A model generated the notes under the pieces. It did not search any database. It was not told the DNA's origin and worked only from the letters and a program-made list of their open reading frames with translations. This document shows, piece by piece, positions 33,697-46,193 of a stretch of DNA of 64,000 bases. The position numbers were made by a program, and so were the translations under genes. Numbering within the stretch: the stretch's first letter is position 1; every line of letters starts with the position of its first letter. This stretch comes from an uncultured Candidatus Poseidoniales archaeon (lineage in GTDB: Archaea; Thermoplasmatota; Poseidoniia; Poseidoniales; CAYMED01), in contig CAYMED010000006.1 in the NCBI GenBank assembly GCA_964389655.1, positions 4,679 to 68,678 of the forward strand, read 5' to 3'.

Positions 33697-34377
33697 TCAT
33701 GATATCTCTTCATCCATGGAGGACCAAACCATAACCTGATTTTGCCCAATAATTGATGACTCAACCAACTGCAAGCCACTAGAGTTCCATGTGCTGAGGC
33801 GGCGCTCAAGATCAACTAGGACATGGTATCGCTCTGCAAGAGTACCATTGGGTAATTGCCATGTAACCCAAGCCACGTCACCATCCCAACGCACGTTTTT
33901 AGGGGAATTTGGAGCCCAACAAGTAACATATATTCTTCCCCTTGGACGTAACAACCTTTTAGCTTCTGAAAGAGCAATAACTCCCTCATTCAAAGGAAGG
34001 TGGTGTAATGTCGCTACACAAAGAATTGCGTCGAAGGAAGAATCATCCCAAGGCATATTTCGTATATCACACACAAGTGGAGTAACTGAGGGGTGGGCAA
34101 GTTGCGCAAGCGCCACCATTTTGGGGCTCAAATCACATGCTTCAACGCGATGCCCTGCACTCAATCCAATTCCAATATGCCTGCCACTTCCACACCCTGC
34201 AATCAAAAGGTCGACTGATTTTGGAAGTTGATGGAGCCAGTCTACTACATGCGACCAAGGCTTGTTTCTTCGTTGGCTAAAATCATCCGCTATTTGGTCC
34301 CAAGTACGCTGCACGCTCTCAATGCCCGGAAATGATTGGTCTCCGGAGTCACGGGCCCGGGGCTCCAAATTGCTCAC
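33697..34377 (-). CDS. Class I SAM methyltransferase, Trm9/ALKBH8-like
   Basis: WDQIADDFSQRRNKPW resembles the Trm9 N-terminus; AGCGSG; FDAILCVATLHHL; RLLRPRG..TCWA. Confidence 0.75.
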   Translation of the reverse strand: MSNLEPRARDSGDQSFPGIESVQRTWDQIADDFSQRRNKPWSHVVDWLHQLPKSVDLLIAGCGSGRHIGIGLSAGHRVEACDLSPKMVALAQLAHPSVTPLVCDIRNMPWDDSSFDAILCVATLHHLPLNEGVIALSEAKRLLRPRGRIYVTCWAPNSPKNVRWDGDVAWVTWQLPNGTLAERYHVLVDLERRLSTWNSSGLQLVESSIIGQNQVMVWSSMDEEIS

Positions 34378-34438: not shown

Positions 34439-34741
34439 ATGATTGAACGAGTGATTCACTCCTTGACGCGACTTGAAGGCGTTCTAGATGCACGTGTTGT
34501 AAATATGCATGAAGTCAATGAATTGAGTACTCAAACGGCCATCTGCGCTGAAGACCTAGTCAAATCCTCCACAGATAGTGAATGGGTTGATGGCTGGATT
34601 GAAACAAAGGAAAAGAAAATCAGCATGCGAAGAATACACGGTGGCCGCACATTGTGGATTGAAAGCACAACGGCACTAGCAACTGGACGGATACTCCACC
34701 ACCTTCAGCGCTCTGCTGCATTAATTGAAGAAATCATATGA
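34439..34741 (+). CDS. Roadblock/LC7 (MglB-like) small protein
   Basis: 100 aa from ATG 34439: IERVIHSLTRLEGVLDARVV...WIETKEKKISM...ATGRILHHLQRSAALIEEII fits the roadblock helix/strand pattern. Confidence 0.62.
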   Translation: MIERVIHSLTRLEGVLDARVVNMHEVNELSTQTAICAEDLVKSSTDSEWVDGWIETKEKKISMRRIHGGRTLWIESTTALATGRILHHLQRSAALIEEII

Positions 34742-37700
34742 GTGAGTGATATGTTTAGCATGCCAACTGGCAAAATTGTCCCACGAGACACTGATTTGTC
34801 GATTGAAGTAACACAAATGCCATTTGACCACGGAGCAATTACTCATACAACCAATAGGGGGAGGAAGATAATTGCGCATCGGATTATTGCTGATGGAAAA
34901 GTTGTTGCTTGTATTGCAAATAGCGATTCAAAGACTGAAAATGTATATCTTGTTGGCGAGAGGGCAATAAGAAGGCTAACCCACATTGCACGTGATGGTA
35001 AACTTAATTCACGCGGTGTTATATGGACCCAAGCACAAGTTGAACTCGTACTTCGTAGGTTTCCCGACGCAATTATCGATAGAAGGAGGGTTCGGGGACT
35101 TGTCCTTGAAGATGACCCATTTTCGCACATAGAAGCAAGAGACCTAGCAGCACTAACGCGTGAAATCGCTGATAGGCCTGCGGTAATTGCTGCATTATCA
35201 GTAGAGTCAGGAATTGTAATCGAACATGCAGGAAGCCTCCCTCAATCCCCTGATGAAGCCGCTTCTGGGATTCAAGCCATGGTTGATGCATTTGATTCAG
35301 GGGTGGAAAAGGCACCCATTGATGTTCCACGCACATATATAATTGGAGGTAATGAGGCCACAATTGCCTTATTACGCGAAGGAAGTGCTAGCCTCGTACT
35401 ATGGGTTCAACCGGGAATGGATCCATCTGCAATTCTAGCAAATGCGTCAGCAGTATTGAGAATGACCCCCCCACCAGTTGAAGATTTAGTAGAGTTGGAA
35501 AGTTTGCCAAAAGGGATTGAAGTTACGAGGAAAAAAGGAGGTGTTGAATCACTTATCCGCCTTCTAGATCAAGCTGCAGAAATCGAGGTTTCAGGAGCAA
35601 TTGTTGCAAGAACGCCAGAACGTAATGCTGTCAGCCTTCTACTCGTTGGAGGGGTCCCAAGGGCACTCCATGGAGCACAAGACCTAGAGACTGGGTTACA
35701 AAAAATGACGGATTCTGCTGCAAATTTGGTTATTGAAAGAATTGATGGGGTGGCACGTCTCGCACTAGTTGCAGAAACAAGTGAAAACTTTGATTTACAA
35801 AATCTTCTCGAAATGCTCCCCTCTACACGAACAAAACGTGAAGACAAGATTAAACTGAGGCGGGCTTTACTAGAAGAAATCATTGGTTTCCATGTAGGAA
35901 TTGAGCGCCTTGATCGTGCCCGAACAAGTTGGAAACAAGCAGAATTGTCGGGATTGCCAGTAATGGTCCCAATGGAGCAAAATGATGGGGAAAAATCGCT
36001 TTTGATCGCTGATAAAACCGAAGAAAAAGTGCGGCTGGAAGAAGAATTAGTTGGCCTAGAACGCACAGTAGCTCGCAAAGACCGGCGCCTGAACGAGGCA
36101 TCTGCAACTCATACTCGTTTACGAGAGGAAACCGATGTCCTGCGAGATGAAATGGCATCATCTAAAGATAGAGCAATTCAATTAGAGCAAGAATTAGAAT
36201 TAAGCAGGGCTGCTACAAAGCAGGCTGAAAGCGCTGAAGAAGAAGCACAAAAACGTAATGAGCGCTTGGCAAGGCGTGTTTCTGAGTTAGAATTAGCTGT
36301 CGCTGAACGTGTTGAAGAAGTCGCGAAGGCAATTGCTGGTGCGGGATCTGCCGAAGAATTGGGTCGGACAATTGACCGTATGGCGCGAGAGGAAGCAGAA
36401 TTGCGAGCCGACGTTCGTGGACTTGAAGAAAACCTCAGAGACCTAACCTTAGCAAATGATTCTGCTGAGCGCCTGCATAGGGTGCTTGATGAACAAATAG
36501 AAAGTACAAGAAATCGGTTACGCGTATCTGGTGCCGAACTTGATGAAGCACTAGCCCGTTCGGATGGGGCAAGAGGAGATCTAGAAGTTCTAGAAGCAGA
36601 GATTGTAGCACTTCGACGGAGACACGGGGATGAAATAAATGCAATACGTGACCTTGAAATAAGGTCCGCGCACATTCAGAATGATTTGCGCGATTTACTT
36701 GAACAAAGACGAGTACTCCTACGTGAAATCGGTGATATTGAAGCGAGGCGCAGTAGAGAGGGGGCTGAATTACGAAGCCTTATTGAAGAAAGTAAAAACA
36801 TTACAGATGCTCATGAAGAAGCCTTGCGAGATATTTCAGAGGCTGAGAGGCTTCGAAGCAAACTTCTTGATGAGCCTTTGGGGCAAGCACTGCTTGGAGC
36901 AGATCATGGCTTTGCAGCACTATCTCCCGTCCTTCAGCGGATTGATGAGTCGCGTCAACGAGGATACAGCATTGTTTTGCTAGATAGAGCAGTAGAAAGA
37001 GGGCTTCGTGTAATTCAAGCAACAGTGGATGAGGTAGCAAGCACCCCCCGCAACCTTTTGGCACGTGAAGTGCTAGAACTTCTAGAAACGCAGGCGCCTG
37101 AAACTGCTGGTGCAGTACGCGGCCTTACGCGATGGTCGGTGCAAAATAGGTTACAATATCGTCTAGGAGAATGTGTGCAGTTAGTTGTCCTAGAAATTGA
37201 GGCAATTCTGGATGAATATGACGAAGCAATCACGATGTTACGAAGATTGAATGGAGTTATTGCTGAATTAGCACGCCTCGGAACATCTGAAGATATTCTT
37301 CACCCCCTAGAAGGAGCAACACATCGCCCAGAAGTGCTACCCATTATCGCGCGTCGTGTCCGAGAGCATGTGCAACGTGCATTGGATCGAATATATCTCG
37401 ACGCTGATCGACAAGATCGAGGAGAATTGGCATTAGACCAAACAGCTGATGCACTTGAAGCATTAATCGATCTGATGGATGCCAGTGGATTAACTGGTGA
37501 AATTCCCCCAGGCAGACTATGGTCATTTCAGAGGTCTGGAATCCTGTCCTTCGAAGAATTATCACTCACTGAGCGAGAAAGACCACCAGTAGACATAGAC
37601 ATGGTAGAAGACATGCGTCCATTTATCGAAGGATTAGATGAATCATCACTTGAAGGCGTACGTGAACGTGCTAATGATGTTGGTCAACAAGAAACACCAC

Positions 37701-38029
37701 GCATTGTGAGTGAAAATGAGGATTTGACGACACAGATTGATGACAATCACTTAAACGGATGGGATGACCTAGGCCCACCAGATGATCGATTAGGCGTCGA
37801 TGATGCATCTATTGCTATGCCAAAAGCACCTGTCTCAGCAATTGCATCTGCTGAAGAACTAGATGAACTTGCACAACTCGACTCTGAAATAGATCGGCTT
37901 GATCGTGAAGCAAAAGATAGAGTTCAAGAAGCATTAATGATTGACGAGTTTGAAGAATTACAGGAGGAAGAGGATGCGGATGAAGCAGTTGAGAACCTAC
38001 GTTCTGACCTTGAGGACATCGATCTCTAA
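34742..38029 (+). CDS. Multidomain protein: DUF2226-like + roadblock + DUF2226-like + long coiled coil + acidic tail
   Basis: MPTGKIV..DGKVVAC..GERAIRRL..QVELVLRRFPDA; LTREIADRPAVIAALSVESGIVIEHAG..SLVLWV; LPKG..VSGAI..GGVPRA; heptad E/R/L/A region; no Walker A. Confidence 0.7.
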   Translation: MSDMFSMPTGKIVPRDTDLSIEVTQMPFDHGAITHTTNRGRKIIAHRIIADGKVVACIANSDSKTENVYLVGERAIRRLTHIARDGKLNSRGVIWTQAQVELVLRRFPDAIIDRRRVRGLVLEDDPFSHIEARDLAALTREIADRPAVIAALSVESGIVIEHAGSLPQSPDEAASGIQAMVDAFDSGVEKAPIDVPRTYIIGGNEATIALLREGSASLVLWVQPGMDPSAILANASAVLRMTPPPVEDLVELESLPKGIEVTRKKGGVESLIRLLDQAAEIEVSGAIVARTPERNAVSLLLVGGVPRALHGAQDLETGLQKMTDSAANLVIERIDGVARLALVAETSENFDLQNLLEMLPSTRTKREDKIKLRRALLEEIIGFHVGIERLDRARTSWKQAELSGLPVMVPMEQNDGEKSLLIADKTEEKVRLEEELVGLERTVARKDRRLNEASATHTRLREETDVLRDEMASSKDRAIQLEQELELSRAATKQAESAEEEAQKRNERLARRVSELELAVAERVEEVAKAIAGAGSAEELGRTIDRMAREEAELRADVRGLEENLRDLTLANDSAERLHRVLDEQIESTRNRLRVSGAELDEALARSDGARGDLEVLEAEIVALRRRHGDEINAIRDLEIRSAHIQNDLRDLLEQRRVLLREIGDIEARRSREGAELRSLIEESKNITDAHEEALRDISEAERLRSKLLDEPLGQALLGADHGFAALSPVLQRIDESRQRGYSIVLLDRAVERGLRVIQATVDEVASTPRNLLAREVLELLETQAPETAGAVRGLTRWSVQNRLQYRLGECVQLVVLEIEAILDEYDEAITMLRRLNGVIAELARLGTSEDILHPLEGATHRPEVLPIIARRVREHVQRALDRIYLDADRQDRGELALDQTADALEALIDLMDASGLTGEIPPGRLWSFQRSGILSFEELSLTERERPPVDIDMVEDMRPFIEGLDESSLEGVRERANDVGQQETPRIVSENEDLTTQIDDNHLNGWDDLGPPDDRLGVDDASIAMPKAPVSAIASAEELDELAQLDSEIDRLDREAKDRVQEALMIDEFEELQEEEDADEAVENLRSDLEDIDL

Positions 38030-39339: not shown

Positions 39340-39618
39340 ATGAAAAAGTACCCTTTGTGGATTGAAAGGTCGGTCCTATTAACATTGTTAGCAATGACTG
39401 CATTTGCTGTTGGCAAAGCAGGCACCATCTTTGCATCAATTGCAACTGGATGCGGGGGGGTTCTAGTATCTCTAGTCATCACCGAAGCGATTGGAAGAAG
39501 AATTTACTCCAATTCAGCGGCGCCGAATGGGATTCATTTTCTCGAGGAATCCAAAGACACTTTGCCAAGGAACAACGAAGCGGAGAAGTGCAGCGGCTGC
39601 GAAGAAGAGGAGGGCTGA
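39340..39618 (+). CDS. Small two-TM membrane protein
   Basis: SVLLTLLAMTAFAVG and IFASIATGCGGVLVSLVI; fills the gap after the FG-GAP gene; 3' end overlaps the convergent gene by about 105 nt. Confidence 0.5.
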   Translation: MKKYPLWIERSVLLTLLAMTAFAVGKAGTIFASIATGCGGVLVSLVITEAIGRRIYSNSAAPNGIHFLEESKDTLPRNNEAEKCSGCEEEEG

Positions 39619-40743
39619 AATCACTAGGCCATAAGTCAATTCCAATTCAAGCGACTCTCCAAGTTGCAATGACCATTGACTCATAGGTAAACTCGATTGA
39701 ACAAGATCAAGAAGAATTTCATTGAAGCGCATGGAGATCATAGCAGCAATGGCTGCTATTGAGAAAAATCCTACTGTGTGCCAAAGATGGCCTGTGATCA
39801 AATTATCAAATTGACGAACATATTCTGGATCCTTCTTGCATGCTTCAGGAAGCTTAAATGCATAATCAAGATAGCGAACTGCGCCATATCCGGATTCAAT
39901 ATATATCAAAAAGAATACTGCAAATAGAACTAACTTAAACTGCTGTTCCCCGGCTAATCCAAGGCCAAACAAGGATATGTGGCTTGGATTATCAACTTGG
40001 CTATTCAAAGGCTGAATGGGGAGTGATTGCCCGTTTTGAGATATAAGTGCAGTGATGAAATCCCAAGTAATTAAGGCATGAATTGTAAGAAGAAGAAGAA
40101 GAATGATGAAAGCTGAGCGAATTGATGAGCGACGAAGGCCCCAGATCCCCCTTGTGCCCAACCATACAGGAAGTGTGTACACCAATAAAACAATGAATTG
40201 CACAAATAATAAGAGGGGCCAAATCAAAGTGAGAGCCTCTTCTTCGGTTGGAGGGCGAAAGTTAGCATTCCCAAACGGCCATTGAATCAATTCCCATAGC
40301 ATCACAAGCCCATATCCCATCAACAAACGACCAAGTAACAATAATAGGATTGTTATCGCAGTTATCATTCGAATTCGGCGCTTCCTTTTTTCTGTTTGAA
40401 AGCCTTTGACAGCAAGTGCATACCCATATATGGCAGCAAAAATAACTGGTCCAAGAAAAACTCCTTTGCCAACACCATTCATGCCAGAAAGCCATGCTGG
40501 AAGGGGAAGGCTTCTCTCACTCCCATCAATTGTATCTGCTTGATCATCAATTGTTTGGAGAAGGGTTGTATGCCCCATGAGGTCTGCTTGAGGAATGATA
40601 TAAAGATCAACAAATATGACAAACATCCAAATTAGTGATGCGGTCGCTACGCCCTGCAAAAGGAGAATTTGCCATGCTCTTCGCGTTTTATTGATGTGGA
40701 GGGTACGAGTTCCCTCTTGTTGAAGTGAGACCTCCTCTGCCAT
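39514..40743 (-). CDS. Multipass membrane protein (about 8 TM), unknown function
   Basis: Alternating hydrophobic segments; 1-nt gap after the DUF58 gene. Confidence 0.82.
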   Translation of the reverse strand: MAEEVSLQQEGTRTLHINKTRRAWQILLLQGVATASLIWMFVIFVDLYIIPQADLMGHTTLLQTIDDQADTIDGSERSLPLPAWLSGMNGVGKGVFLGPVIFAAIYGYALAVKGFQTEKRKRRIRMITAITILLLLLGRLLMGYGLVMLWELIQWPFGNANFRPPTEEEALTLIWPLLLFVQFIVLLVYTLPVWLGTRGIWGLRRSSIRSAFIILLLLLTIHALITWDFITALISQNGQSLPIQPLNSQVDNPSHISLFGLGLAGEQQFKLVLFAVFFLIYIESGYGAVRYLDYAFKLPEACKKDPEYVRQFDNLITGHLWHTVGFFSIAAIAAMISMRFNEILLDLVQSSLPMSQWSLQLGESLELELTYGLVISALLFFAAAALLRFVVPWQSVFGFLEKMNPIRRR

Positions 40744-40744
40744 A

Positions 40745-42010
40745 TCAATAACCCCTCACTTGAAGCAATGCCTGAGAAAGATCCATGTCGGGATGCCAAT
40801 CAATTACATGAGCACCAAATCCCGAAAGTGCAGTGAGGCGGTTATCGCGTTCTACCTTCATGACTTCATAGGACATTCGGGGAATACGGCTAACAAGACG
40901 TTCAAGATCCATGCTAGAAGGAGAAAGAATTGTGATGTCATGTTCCCTACCCGCCAAATCACGAACAGCATGGGGTACGGTTCCATCACCCTCAAGGCTG
41001 CTAATTAGGAAAATAGGAGATCCTCGGCTAAATCTCGCAGCCAGTGCGTTGGTAACTGCTTGAAGAGGCATGTTACCGCGCGGAGCAACGCCTGCAAGGC
41101 TGGATAATATCTTGAAATATTGCTTATCCCCTGTATCTGGAGGAAGATAAGATAAATGATCATCATATATTGCCATAGCAACACTATCCCTTCTTTTCAC
41201 AAAAAATGAGGCAAGTGATGCCGCTGCAACACTCCCCATTTCAAGAGGGTTCTTCAATACAGTTCCAATTCGAGTCACGTCTCGACTATCAAGGATTATG
41301 AACACGTCTGTAACTGCGTCTCGACATTTTTCATTCACCATTAATTTCCCTGCACGGGCATAGGCTTTCCAATTGATGTTCTTAAATGGGTCTCCTGGCA
41401 CATATTCCCGTAATGCATAGAATTCAGTCCCTGGGCCAGGGGAACGAAGAACTGTAGCACCAGTATACATTTTTGGAACGTTACTCTTCACTAGGGCTTC
41501 TTCAACATCCCGTACTTTAGGAAAGACAATCAAATCAGAGCGGTGGTCGATAAAGCGCTCACTGGTAAACAAATGAAATGTATTTCTAAAGCGAAGACTC
41601 GTTGGCCCAATGCTATAGTGCCCGCGCAAAGGACATCGCACAGCATAACGAATGGAAGCGGTTTCACCTGGCCCAAGGTTTAGGCGCATTTGATTCAAGC
41701 CACTTTTCAATTTCATCTCATGTGGTATATTATCATACAATTCTAGATGGTGGGTTCGACGAAGGGACCGGTTGGTAATGCGAAGTTCAATGTATAAGTC
41801 ATCTCCCTTGTACAGATTATCTGCGGAAAGTGAACGGAGAACTTCTACATCGCCATGTCCCGAAAGCCACGAATTAACTACAAGAAATGAAATAAGCATT
41901 AAACCAATGATCATGAATTGCTGATTTGAAATCATCATCCCGATTAAAAGCAATGCAATGCCGGATGTAAGATAGAAAGATGCTTTACGGGTCCACATTG
42001 CTTCCACCAC
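40745..42010 (-). CDS. DUF58-domain (vWA-like, normally MoxR-associated) membrane protein
   Basis: Two N-terminal TMs, CPLRGHYSIGP, GTEFYALREYVPGDPFKNINWKAYARAGKLMVNE, RRDSVAM. Confidence 0.93.
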   Translation of the reverse strand: MVEAMWTRKASFYLTSGIALLLIGMMISNQQFMIIGLMLISFLVVNSWLSGHGDVEVLRSLSADNLYKGDDLYIELRITNRSLRRTHHLELYDNIPHEMKLKSGLNQMRLNLGPGETASIRYAVRCPLRGHYSIGPTSLRFRNTFHLFTSERFIDHRSDLIVFPKVRDVEEALVKSNVPKMYTGATVLRSPGPGTEFYALREYVPGDPFKNINWKAYARAGKLMVNEKCRDAVTDVFIILDSRDVTRIGTVLKNPLEMGSVAAASLASFFVKRRDSVAMAIYDDHLSYLPPDTGDKQYFKILSSLAGVAPRGNMPLQAVTNALAARFSRGSPIFLISSLEGDGTVPHAVRDLAGREHDITILSPSSMDLERLVSRIPRMSYEVMKVERDNRLTALSGFGAHVIDWHPDMDLSQALLQVRGY

Positions 42011-42011
42011 C

Positions 42012-43607
42012 TCAGGTTTTTCCCCATGCTTTGATGCGTTTGACTATAGCTACTGTTTGTTCAATCGAATAATCTCGATCCTCAAATACGAATTTCGTCA
42101 GAATTGGGTCTTCAATCATCGTCGCTAAATCACGTGCAGGGAGAAGGTCAAACTCATCTCTAGTCAGACCGTTATTGTTTCGGACTTTTGAAAGAAATGT
42201 CGCACGTATTTTGGGAGTTTTGGCATAATATCCATATCGGTGTGAGTCACCAAATCCGTAGTAAATCACACTGAAAACATGCCGCCAATCCTCGGGGTCT
42301 CGTTTACGAATCATGACGGCTTCAAGTGCAACAAAAAGGGCAAGGAAAAGTAATAGCATGGCCGTTTTATCTGAAGTAAAATAGACCATCAAATAATAGA
42401 TGAAATTATACGAGTCTGCTAAGCCAAGTGGTGCTGGTTGGGCGTGCCTACTTTCTTCAAAAATGACTTGAGCGCCTTCTGGAACTGCTAAAACATCAAG
42501 ATGGGCACTTCCAACATCTAATTGCGAGATATTACGCCCCTCGACCAAAAGAGATTCGGCGATGAAGTCTAAAGCCCATATTCGATTGTCATTCACGGGT
42601 ATTTGGCCCCCGTATTTACCGCTATTTTGGCCATAAATTGCGTTAATGAGGAGGGATCCATCTGAAAGGAAAAAGATGCGGCCGGCGTTAGGTTGACTGC
42701 AATTACCATCGCAGCCTTCTATATAAAGGTCAAAAGGACCTTGTTTGTCGACAACTTGGCCGGGAAGTTCTGATTCCAAGACCAATTGCCCATCACCATT
42801 TACATCAAGATATGATTCCTGAGATGATTGTCCAATTGGTTCCATCGTCAGGGCAGCTGTTGGTTCAGTAGGTAGAAAACCAGAGGGTGTATTGAGAAGG
42901 ATGTGAAATTCAGCATTATACTCAATTTCGTTTGTTGTCGAATTCCATCGGTGTCGGCATAAGCCAGCATCCTCGGCAGACGTGACTGAAACATTGCTCC
43001 ATTTCACACATGGATGACTGCCATGCCACCTTTCGTGACCCACGAGGCCATCTGTTCCCGAAATATTCTCTGTGAGGTTCATCCAAGTAAAATTTGAATC
43101 TAATTCATGGGCCCATTCTTCATCGAATAAGCGCTGGCCCGAATAATCTACTCCAAATGCCACACCTAAGCTTGAAGCAAAACCATAATCTTCCATAACC
43201 AGCACGCTCCCACCCCTAGCAACAAAGCCAATTATTGCATTTATCTCAGAAGTTGAGTAACCCTGTCCCCCAGACAATGAAGAAGTACTAATTCCTGTGC
43301 TCCCAAAAGAAGGGATGTCAACGGCATCTCGTTCAAGTCCTGCAATAATCACAACAGTATGGGATGGGTCATCCACATCTTCCAATAATAACGGACTTGA
43401 AACAAGAGATTTTGTGGGTATTCCAAGGTCATTTAGTTCTTCTCTAAATTCAGATAGATCATCCCAATCATCACCATAAGCAGAGAGTTGACTAGGAATC
43501 GGGCGAAGATAAGTACTCAGCAAGGAGCCAAGCAGTAAGAGGAGAGATGCATAAAACGCACCTACTATGATTATGCGTCGAAATCGGCGCCTTGAACGTC
43601 GAGCCAT
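42012..43607 (-). CDS. DUF4350-like membrane-anchored extracellular domain protein
   Basis: N-terminal TM then SAYGDDWDDLSEF; EINAIIGFVARGGSVLVMEDYG; GRIFFLSDGSLLIN; VIFEESRH; second TM. Confidence 0.78.
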   Translation of the reverse strand: MARRSRRRFRRIIIVGAFYASLLLLLGSLLSTYLRPIPSQLSAYGDDWDDLSEFREELNDLGIPTKSLVSSPLLLEDVDDPSHTVVIIAGLERDAVDIPSFGSTGISTSSLSGGQGYSTSEINAIIGFVARGGSVLVMEDYGFASSLGVAFGVDYSGQRLFDEEWAHELDSNFTWMNLTENISGTDGLVGHERWHGSHPCVKWSNVSVTSAEDAGLCRHRWNSTTNEIEYNAEFHILLNTPSGFLPTEPTAALTMEPIGQSSQESYLDVNGDGQLVLESELPGQVVDKQGPFDLYIEGCDGNCSQPNAGRIFFLSDGSLLINAIYGQNSGKYGGQIPVNDNRIWALDFIAESLLVEGRNISQLDVGSAHLDVLAVPEGAQVIFEESRHAQPAPLGLADSYNFIYYLMVYFTSDKTAMLLLFLALFVALEAVMIRKRDPEDWRHVFSVIYYGFGDSHRYGYYAKTPKIRATFLSKVRNNNGLTRDEFDLLPARDLATMIEDPILTKFVFEDRDYSIEQTVAIVKRIKAWGKT

Positions 43608-43674
43608 AGGATACCCTGCGTGAATGGTATTCTGCTCAGCAACTCGTTATCTTATCACCGTTCCGAGCGCGAGT

Positions 43675-43920
43675 TCATATGGAAAGATGGACATCTGTCT
43701 CTATTCGATCCACTTCTGCGGCTGGAACATGCGTTCTTCCGCCTTCAAACGGCCAGGGAAGCCTTTCAGGATCAATATCACCTGCAGGCAAGACTAGCAA
43801 GTCCACCACATGGCCGGTAGCCGGGTCGATACTGAAATCTTCAATCCGGCCCAATTCATCACCTGCAGCGTCAAGAACGCGGCGGCCAACGATCTCGGAA
43901 CCAAATGTTGCTCGAACCAA
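43675..43920 (-). CDS. PRC-barrel domain protein
   Basis: SEIVGRRVLDAAGDELGRIEDFSIDPATGHVVDLLV. Confidence 0.9.
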   Translation of the reverse strand: MVRATFGSEIVGRRVLDAAGDELGRIEDFSIDPATGHVVDLLVLPAGDIDPERLPWPFEGGRTHVPAAEVDRIETDVHLSI

Positions 43921-43929
43921 AGGTGCCCC

Positions 43930-46152
43930 TCACATTGTTTCCATTCCTCTATTCGAATCTGAACGACGAACTGAAGAAAGTCCAGAGGTCAATTTTGTTT
44001 CGAGTTTTGTGTAATATTCAATCATATCAGGGGTAATTGTTGGGCGTACTGAACGCATTGCATCGATGAAATGAGATTTCTTCACATTCTTTGACTCGTC
44101 TCGCATAGCCCTTAGTGCTGCTTCTCGACAAATCGCTTCGACATCCGCACCAGTAAACCCACCCATCTGGTTTGTTAAATCAACCATCTTAAAACGGCCA
44201 AGGGGCATACTTTCCGAATGTATCTGAAGAATATCAACTAGAGCCTTTTTATCAGGGGGGGGAATATGGAGGATGCGTTCAAACCTACCTGATCGAAGCA
44301 ACGCTGGATCAATTAATTCCGGCCTATTTGTTGCCGCGATTACAATGACGTCTTCAAGTAATTCCACTCCATCCATGCTCGACAACAACTGGTTTACGAT
44401 TCGATTTCCAACTAAACTACTCTCGCCATCGCCCCCCGAACGAAAAGAAGCAATGGCTTCAAATTCATCAAAGAAAATGATCGAAGGAGATGCCTGTTTT
44501 GCTTTCTTGAAGATTTCGCGAACTCCGCGTTCAGACTCACCAACCCATTTTGAGATTAATTCGGGGCCTTTTACAGTTATGAAATTAGCAGACGCCTCAT
44601 TTGCCACGGCCTTCGCAATGAGGGTCTTTCCAGTCCCGGGTGCACCAAATAAAAGAATGCCACGTGGTGGTTTAATCCCAAATTTATCGAAGAGGTGTGG
44701 TTTAGTTAGTGGCCATTCGACAGATTCTTTCAGACGTTCTTTTACTTCATCTAACCCACCAACTTGGTCCCATGTCACTTCAGGGACTTCAACCCAAATT
44801 TCCCTCAATGCAGATGGTTCAATATCCTTAATCGCTAATCTAAAATCTTCCATTCGAACTTCCATTATTTCTAGAACTTCAGGGGGTATTGTTTCTTCTT
44901 CCAAATCAATATCTGGAAGATATCTTCTAAGCGCTTTCATTGCTGATTCACGGACAAGCGCAGAGATATCTGCACCTACAAAACCATACGTATTTTCAAG
45001 AATCCAATCTTCCTCAAAATCATCAGCAATGGGCATTCCGCGTATATGAACCTCGAGAATCTCTGCTCTTCCTTCACGGTCGGGGACGCCGATCTCAATT
45101 TCACGATCAAATCGGCCCGGGCGACGGAGGGCAGGGTCAATTGCATCACGGCGGTTTGTTGCACCGATAACAATGACATTGTCCCTCCCCTGCATTCCAT
45201 CCATCAAAGTGAGTAATTGTGCGACAACTCTGCGTTCAACTTCACCATGAACATCTTCTCGTTTCGGGGCAATACTATCCAATTCATCGATGAATATGAT
45301 CGAAGGACTCTTTGAAGCCGCTTCTTCAAAGACTTCACGCAATTGTTTTTCCGATTCACCATAGTATTTACTAATGATTTCAGGCCCATTAATCGAAGTG
45401 AAGTCTGCATTTGTTTCTGCAGCCACTGCACGAGCAATCATTGTTTTCCCTGTACCTGGGGGTCCGTGTAGTAACACGCCTTTTGGAGGGTCAATACCCA
45501 AACGGTGAAATAACTCGGGATGTTTGAGGGGTAACTCGATCATTTCACGAACCTTGAGCAATTGCTCCCCAATACCTCCAATATCCTCGTACGTTATTTC
45601 ATTGACTTCAAATTCACTATCGGCATCAACAATTTCCTCACGAATCACAATTTCTGTATCTGTTGAGACACGAACAATGCCTTTAGGAGTTGTTTGAACA
45701 ATCGCAAATGGCAAGGCTTCTGCAAAGAGCGTCATTCCAGGGATAAACACTCTATCGCCAGCAACAACAGGTCGCTTAATTAATCCACGACGGGCAAAGC
45801 CCTCAATTCCAGGTCCGAATTTAACATTGTGTTTGTGCTGCATTACTGGGCTGATCACAAGTTTTTGGCATGGATGCGCTTCTGCTTTGCGTATCGTGAC
45901 ACGATCAGTAAGACTCACGCCTGCATTTTTACGAATAATACCATCAACTCTAATGATGTCTGAAGAGGCATCTTCAGGGCGGCATCTCCAAACAACTGCT
46001 GCTGTTTTCTTTTTCCCCTCTATCTCAATGATGTCTCCGGGGGATAAATCAAGGTCGTTTTCGAACGGAACGCGTGCGCGGCCGTGCCCCACATCACTGG
46101 GAATTGCTTTGTGCACGCGCAACTCAATTGAGGGGGCTGACGTCTCACTCAT
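43930..46152 (-). CDS. cdc48: Cdc48/VAT (p97-type) double-AAA ATPase
   Basis: N-domain [19 protein letters not shown]; D1 [25 protein letters not shown]; D2 [23 protein letters not shown]. Confidence 0.96.
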
Positions 46153-46187
46153 CTGGCTCGACCGGATGACGACCTCCGGCGGGGTCA

Positions 46188-46193
46188 TTTAAA
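46188..46193 (-). promoter_or_regulatory. Probable TATA box (TTTAAA) for cdc48
   Basis: 35 nt upstream of ATG 46152; this argues against the longer ORF-track start at 46188. Confidence 0.5.

Follow-up and report, generated by a model that had tools for sequence, protein, structure and literature searches.

A Poseidoniales-specific operon pairing a small Roadblock protein with a giant coiled-coil protein: a candidate scaffold near the membrane

Overview

The stretch of DNA analysed here (the window, 64,000 nucleotides (nt) of contig CAYMED010000006.1 in assembly GCA_964389655.1) comes from an uncultured Candidatus Poseidoniales archaeon and carries the local copy of an operon that appears to be specific to the order Poseidoniales. 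Its first two genes encode a small Roadblock/LC7 protein (P0001) and a giant soluble protein (P0002), in which an internal Roadblock domain precedes a long coiled-coil rod. The operon continues past position 38029, outside the range covered by an earlier note on this DNA, with two co-oriented membrane-protein genes; the unit in the window thus comprises four genes, encoding the Roadblock protein, the giant, an FG-GAP membrane protein and a microprotein (Table 1). On balance, the products of the operon probably form a long scaffold or tether that has no enzymatic role and lies near the membrane.

In this model, the small Roadblock protein would pair with the Roadblock domain in the head of the giant, forming the kind of two-Roadblock platform known from MglB dimers or LAMTOR2/3. 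A dimer of the rod would serve as a spacer of roughly 45 nm, and docking onto a membrane partner would fall to either the helical end domain or the C-terminal motif of the giant. The platform would recruit a partner other than a canonical small GTPase, because none was found in the genome.

The gene pair and the small Roadblock protein

Coordinates are positions within the window, and residues of the giant are counted from the methionine of MFSMPTG. The earlier note had described a 100-amino acid (aa) open reading frame (ORF) followed, with a gap of 0 nt, by a long ORF reaching 38029. Both ORFs are present, but the gap has to be revised: the N-terminus M-F-x-x-P-x-G (here MFSMPTG) is invariant in 23 of 23 aligned homologues of the giant, so that ATG 34751 is almost certainly the real start and the intergenic gap is therefore 9 nt, leaving a giant of 1092 aa. 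Taken singly, neither P0001 nor P0002 matches any Pfam family at E≤1. Both a Walker A motif and a transmembrane-like segment were looked for in the sequence of the giant, and neither was seen.

P0001 is a divergent member of its group, sharing 13-29% identity with the other small-protein orthologues. Pfam Robl_LC7 (PF03259) is matched by 11 of the 24 orthologues in alignment A2 (best E 2.2e-7), and the profile of this alignment finds, in the PDB, the Roadblock protein of the Asgard archaeon Thorarchaeota (7f8m, 5.4e-11), a Prometheoarchaeum Roadblock protein (7yh1, 3.5e-6) and MglC (7ct3, 4.5e-5). The roadblock-like character that had been noticed in the small gene is therefore supported at the level of the family. 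Since neither window protein matches Robl_LC7 by itself, it is family profiles and fold that carry the Roadblock assignment; by profile comparison the small protein belongs to the Roadblock family, with membership shown for the orthologue family rather than for P0001 alone.

Table 1. Features of the operon in the window and related genes elsewhere
Feature	Size or residues	Position	Strand	Basis or remark
Small Roadblock/LC7 protein (P0001)	100 aa	34439..34741	+	ORF; operon gene 1
Giant soluble protein (P0002)	1092 aa	34751..38029	+	ORF open from GTG 34742
D1, N-terminal beta-rich domain	aa 1-118	34751..35104	+	AlphaFold2 pLDDT about 81-92
D2, internal Roadblock/MglB-fold domain	aa 128-242	35132..35476	+	AlphaFold2 model
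D3, alpha/beta domain	aa 253-362	35507..35836	+	AlphaFold2 pLDDT 83-95; helix 364-393 after D3
Coiled-coil rod	aa 395-706	35933..36868	+	Periodicity, no proline, charge
C-terminal helical domain	aa 707-955	36869..37615	+	Restricted to order Poseidoniales
Acidic tail	aa 956-1092 (137 aa)	37616..38029	+	Ends in conserved motif, here AVENLRSDLEDIDL
FG-GAP beta-propeller type-I membrane protein	~450 aa	37974..39326	+	Pfam FG-GAP_3, 8e-27
Microprotein with two transmembrane segments	92 aa (P0086:31-122)	39340..39618	+	Match to hidden Markov model, E 1.3e-4
Third Roadblock paralogue	143 aa	G000 contig 18, 16460-16888 = L052:1309-1740	-	Robl_LC7 E 0.0013; unlinked
Microprotein in giant-less Thalassarchaeaceae		L147:9389-9667; L148:2624-3073; L149:2493-2780	+; -; -	Between TtuA and 409-aa gene

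Distribution and joint loss

Of 41 related genomes, 29 encode a full-length homologue of the giant (34-51% identity). When the N-terminal 420 aa served as query, one family gave matches in 86 of its 89 genomes and a second in 18 of 66, and the 45 genomes from the remainder of the class gave none. When 301 genomes of the phylum were searched with the C-terminal profile A4, no lineage other than Poseidoniales yielded the giant family. The same profile retrieved 285 loci from GTDB species genomes, with hosts named as Candidatus Poseidoniales, Poseidoniaceae, Thalassarchaeaceae, Poseidonia or Marine Group II; an earlier locus scan that used a two-sequence alignment as query had returned zero loci. 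The gene pair is found in nearly all Poseidoniaceae sampled and in Thalassarchaeaceae with larger genomes, and only in Candidatus Poseidoniales.

Comparison of the head profile A3 with 1.84 billion protein representatives yielded 81 proteins. About a dozen are full-length giants of 1020-1089 aa and the others are fragments of giants, apart from a few marginal single-domain Roadblock proteins; no other architecture bears the head. The literature searched contains no published description of the operon or of the fused architecture, in agreement with the earlier note, which had been unable to place it in any described system.

In four giant-less genomes, TtuA directly adjoins the gene for a 409-aa membrane protein that otherwise lies on the far side of the operon, and both the Roadblock gene and the giant are missing. 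This joint loss of exactly two soluble genes marks the small Roadblock protein and the giant as one functional unit.

The head of the giant and its predicted pairing with the small Roadblock protein

The AlphaFold2 model of the head, calculated on a 24-sequence alignment (model m2bc107db8571; mean predicted local distance difference test (pLDDT) 78, predicted template modelling score 0.63), shows three domains, D1 to D3, and a helix, with boundaries close to those in the earlier note. In D2, the Roadblock fold spans the whole domain, both in the model and in fold searches; two such searches with the 430-aa head gave result lists filled by Roadblock domain matches. Robl_LC7 is matched by 7 of 24 giant homologues (best E 2.1e-5; P0002 itself gives no match), and in the PDB the A3 profile finds CvnB5 (3leq, E 0.0046). 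An internal roadblock domain had been proposed for this position, and both the model and the homologues uphold it.

The two domains that flank D2 are less easily placed. Neither the 24-homologue alignment nor the profile gave a Pfam or PDB sequence match for D1 or D3. The earlier note had named them DUF2226, an identity that the family model does not support: PF09987 has zero matches at E≤10 in the genome and zero among the 24 homologues. In 201 Thermoplasmatota genomes nothing exceeds its cut-off, the weak matches there being DNA ligase and GatE, and the term occurs nowhere in the literature searched. The model of PatA_N (PF14332) likewise gave no support, with zero matches at E≤10 in the genome, zero among the 24 homologues and, across 201 genomes of the phylum, nothing that passed its cut-off. 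The language-model features of the ESM-Atlas bring up both families, for D1 with PatA_N at 0.85 and DUF2226 at 0.84 and for D3 with DUF2226 at 0.83 and PatA_N at 0.82, all below 0.9 and therefore leads only. By these features, the same pair of archaeal clusters (114 and 118 aa) comes up for D1 and for D3, and the scores of the archaeal, PatA_N and DUF2226 clusters lie between 0.82 and 0.88.

The two flanking domains had also been described as similar 'PxG' domains. Both do open with L-P-x-G, but the wider likeness does not hold, as hhalign gave a probability of 0.2% in two runs and the order of secondary-structure elements differs in the model. The order in D3 is beta-alpha-beta-beta-beta-alpha-beta, which may resemble the PATAN core. 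Profile A8 of D3, compared with proteins of 63-207 aa, found only fragments of the giant's own family. A homologue search with the head retrieved only the head itself and one relative, and an ESM-Atlas fold search only its own family and Roadblock-containing clusters, with template-modelling scores ≤0.5.

Co-folding of the small Roadblock protein with the head's Roadblock domain gave a score of 0.32 (runs 0.32, 0.41 and 0.31), against 0.00 for the best of three controls. The runs share at least 77% of their contacts, and partner pLDDT is at least 69, with values of 69-73 for the small partner in the complex. Of 80 solved complexes, 58 reach the mark, as do 2 of 110 mismatched pairs, counts that apply only roughly here because purpose-made alignments were used; passing scores of 0.60 or below were obtained by only 7 of the 80 solved complexes and by both of the passing mismatches. 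As Roadblock dimers have been solved, the pass may also reflect likeness to known structures. The model thus gives weak support to a Roadblock-Roadblock heterodimer, the pairing suggested in the earlier note.

The weakness of this pass would fit two neighbours that do not interact physically, their adjacency being due to no more than common regulation or history, and either unit could have its true partner in the third Roadblock paralogue described below. The gene order speaks against this alternative: in 28 of 28 loci examined, from three families, a gene of about 95-120 aa ends 2-20 nt 5' of the giant. So do the joint loss of the pair in the four giant-less loci examined and the characteristically dimeric state of Roadblock domains in solved examples. 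Absence of interaction is accordingly considered decidedly unlikely.

The rod, the C-terminal domain and the tail

The rod contains no proline between residues 421 and 700, 44% of its residues are charged, and its hydrophobic periodicity is sharp at 3.5 residues (power 2.75, compared with ≤0.08 at other periods), as expected from the coiled coil of about 280 aa that the earlier note had recognised. Rod length stays within 307-313 aa across 18 homologues that represent three families and share only ~35% identity; such near-constant length points to selection on length. A canonical coiled coil rises by 0.148 nm per residue, and a rod of ~310 aa folded in this way would span roughly 45 nm.

The domain that follows is the best-conserved part of the giant, with column identities of 0.70-0.83. 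It is predicted to consist of long helices (pLDDT 82), and fold searches returned zero known folds for it. The tail is poorly conserved and contains 44 aspartate and glutamate against 11 lysine and arginine residues; both the helical domain and the very acidic tail had been noticed before. The tail terminates in the motif L-x-x-L-E-x-x-L-x-x-[LIV]-[DE]-[LIMFW]-COOH in 17 of 18 homologues, the sole exception being locus L040, where the tail was not extracted.

A long coiled coil with weak matches to SMC models, together with a size and charge pattern like that of filament-forming coiled-coil proteins, could also suggest a chromosome- or division-associated protein, either SMC-like or a cytoskeletal filament former. 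The giant, however, lacks a Walker A motif and an ATPase head, and no hinge or DNA-binding domain was detected; Pfam SMC_hinge and SMC_N are absent. The NCBIfam matches are weak and confined to the coiled coil, with TIGR02168 at 17.7 bits against a cut-off of 567. The earlier note was thus right to set SMC proteins aside. Its tie to cell-division genes is not supported: among the genes identified beside the operon there is no ftsZ, sepF, cdv or minD, and conservation there extends to pyrBI, TtuA and a Cdc48-DUF4350-DUF58 cluster. A role in division or chromosome organisation is considered very improbable.

GTPases, the third Roadblock paralogue and the archaellum

The genome, which is 93% complete, contains no match at E≤1 to Arf (PF00025), Ras (PF00071) or Gtr1/RagA (PF04670). 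Nothing exceeds the cut-off of Roc (PF08477), for which the best match (E 0.024) lies in a frame with stops. The cognate MglA/Ras-superfamily GTPase expected of a GTPase-activating protein (GAP) of the MglB type was not found in the genome, and the completeness of 93% means that its absence is not proven. For the role as a GAP or platform that the earlier note had drawn from known Roadblock proteins, no small GTPase was thus found in the genome.

If the NTPase were encoded elsewhere, the Roadblock units could still belong to a GTPase or NTPase switch, acting as GAP, guanine nucleotide exchange factor or platform in the manner of MglB/RomY or Ragulator, with the rod positioning the module at a pole or division site. 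Apart from the missing Arf, Ras, Roc and Gtr1/RagA matches, a GTPase gene is absent from the conserved neighbourhood of the operon and from the surroundings of the third Roadblock paralogue. A survey of 749 MglB homologues, moreover, counted 328 as 'orphans' of unknown role (PMC4316618). A switch module is regarded as unlikely.

The third paralogue lies on another contig of the same genome. With profile A7 it was detected in 25 of the 29 genomes that carry the giant and in none of the 12 that lack it, counts that come from related, non-independent genomes and may reflect only one or two loss events. Its conserved neighbours encode a family-less coiled-coil protein of 320-350 aa, a GNAT protein, DUF7121 and PurP, with no GTPase gene beside it.

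The distribution of the third paralogue follows that of the giant better than archaellin does. In the 41-genome set, 23 of the 29 genomes with the giant and 2 of the 12 without it encode archaellin (PF01917), and bacterial Roadblock proteins of the MglB type govern motility polarity; the giant might thus be an organiser that positions or regulates the archaellum. Yet 4 of 15 genera are discordant, three with a giant and no archaellin (g2, g4 and g15) and one with archaellin and no giant (g13). The archaellum genes sit on another contig, unlinked to the operon, the related genomes are not independent, and archaellin and the giant both follow genome size. This explanation is held to be very improbable.

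The downstream membrane-protein genes

In 12 other loci, a protein of 66-116 aa with two transmembrane segments begins ~10-20 nt after the giant. A hidden Markov model (HMM) built from these 12 microproteins has a single match below E 0.1 in the genome, the microprotein listed in Table 1, which contains the conserved YPLWIER motif and two hydrophobic segments and aligns with its orthologues (alignment A5). The local protein lacks the N-terminal 'TTLxGREExxG' cytoplasmic peptide of most orthologues and carries a C-terminal extension of 45 aa that ends in CSGCEEEEG.

In the window, the giant and the microprotein are separated by the FG-GAP gene, the start of which overlaps the 3' end of the giant by ~50 nt. 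Its product has a signal-like N-terminal segment and one C-terminal transmembrane segment. The gene occupies the same position in a contig of the same genus (L001) and is missing there in 16 other loci; it is a lineage-specific insertion between giant and microprotein, and as it is confined to the source genus it was rejected as a conserved partner. The FG-GAP protein also gives propeller matches to BBS2, BBS7 and ITFG2 (E 2e-5 to 7e-4, all under the cut-off), most likely through generic propeller similarity.

Several observations weigh against a membrane-proximal, non-enzymatic scaffold. Only gene order ties the giant to the membrane: its sequence shows neither a hydrophobic nor an amphipathic segment suited to membrane binding, and the gene that follows it differs among lineages, as the FG-GAP insertion illustrates. 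A microprotein homologue (E 1.8e-9, 2.1e-7 and 3.2e-5) is retained in the same place and orientation in three of the four giant-less genomes examined, which implies that it is not merely the anchor of the giant and has an independent role. The heterodimer passed its co-folding test weakly, under a calibration that fits only roughly. The head could hide an activity, since D1 and D3 match no family. Finally, Roadblock platforms normally serve GTPases and none was found, so that the known logic may not transfer.

The flanking genes

The operon is embedded in a neighbourhood that is syntenic across the order, with pyrB-pyrI and TtuA on one side and the 409-aa membrane protein, DUF58, DUF4350 and Cdc48 on the other. 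These genes lie on the other strand or are divergent relative to the operon, and they stay when the operon is lost; the synteny is therefore treated as positional and not functional. In the window, the convergent cluster extends over 39514-46188 on the minus strand and comprises the 409-aa membrane protein, which belongs to no known family, DUF58, DUF4350 and Cdc48 (CDC48_N and two AAA domains); no MoxR was seen in the DUF58-DUF4350-Cdc48 cluster.

A methyltransferase dependent on S-adenosylmethionine is encoded at 33697-34377 on the minus strand, between TtuA and the Roadblock gene, in this window only. It is missing at that position in 17 other loci, including that of the same genus (L001). 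The Trm9-Ncs6 'module' proposed earlier for this DNA is thus not a conserved linkage in the order.

Relation to known Roadblock systems

The Poseidoniales proteins share their fold and a two-unit logic with MglB/MglC/RomY, with the Roadblock proteins of Asgard archaea and with Ragulator. In the MglB/MglC/RomY systems of Myxococcus and Thermus (6hjm, 6h5b, 3t1r and 7ct3), the Roadblock proteins work with an MglA-like GTPase, which was not found in this genome. In Poseidoniales, moreover, one of the Roadblock units forms part of a 1092-aa protein that also comprises two extra head domains, a rod of 310 aa and a new end domain; the operon includes membrane-protein genes, and the hosts are archaea of a single order. 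The Asgard Roadblock proteins (7f8m from Thorarchaeota; 7yh1, 9jue and 9jq8 from Prometheoarchaeum) are single-domain proteins of ~115-130 aa, are not fused to a coiled coil and come from another phylum. Ragulator/LAMTOR (p14/MP1 and LAMTOR4/5; 1veu, 2zl1 and 5x6v) is eukaryotic, lacks a rod domain and serves Rag GTPases, whereas a Gtr1/RagA match was not found in the Poseidoniales genome.

PATAN proteins offer a further comparison. MglB homologues are known to occur near PATAN proteins (PMC4316618), and clusters with a fusion of PatA_N and Robl_LC7 are found for Myxococcota in the ESM-Atlas. In contrast to PATAN or DUF2226 proteins, the Poseidoniales giant is matched by neither HMM, be it in the 24 homologues, in the genome or, over the cut-off, in the 201 genomes.

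A more far-reaching version of the scaffold would be a GTPase-independent Roadblock cytoskeletal system in Poseidoniales, docked to the membrane and equipped with PATAN-like flanking domains, as an archaeal counterpart of the bacterial PATAN-MglB machinery for polarity. The small protein, the head domain and the third paralogue, amounting to two to three Roadblock units, would then assemble on the rod with its fixed length of ~45 nm, and the new helical domain and the C-terminal motif would dock on small membrane proteins, organising the envelope or the poles. D1 and D3 would be very divergent PATAN-like modules, and the GTPase would have been lost or never have been present. This proposal is tentative and rather doubtful. 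New in the present analysis are the FG-GAP insertion, the clean loss of two genes and the co-distributed third Roadblock paralogue.

Significance

Poseidoniales (Marine Group II) are uncultured and, according to many reports, count among the most abundant archaea of the plankton. To our knowledge, almost nothing is known about their cell biology. A protein of ~115 kDa that is present nearly throughout the order and carries a eukaryote-like Roadblock module on a rod of conserved length offers a concrete way into the organisation of these cells, all the more as the pair has been lost as a unit in streamlined lineages.

The class of orphan Roadblock proteins had no experimentally characterised member in the 2014 survey (PMC4316618). 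The Poseidoniales operon represents a clean natural case of such an 'orphan' that apparently occurs without a GTPase, and it could show how a Roadblock platform works in the absence of a small GTPase. If the GTPase-independent system described above were real, it would organise the envelope or the poles in an abundant group of oceanic archaea.

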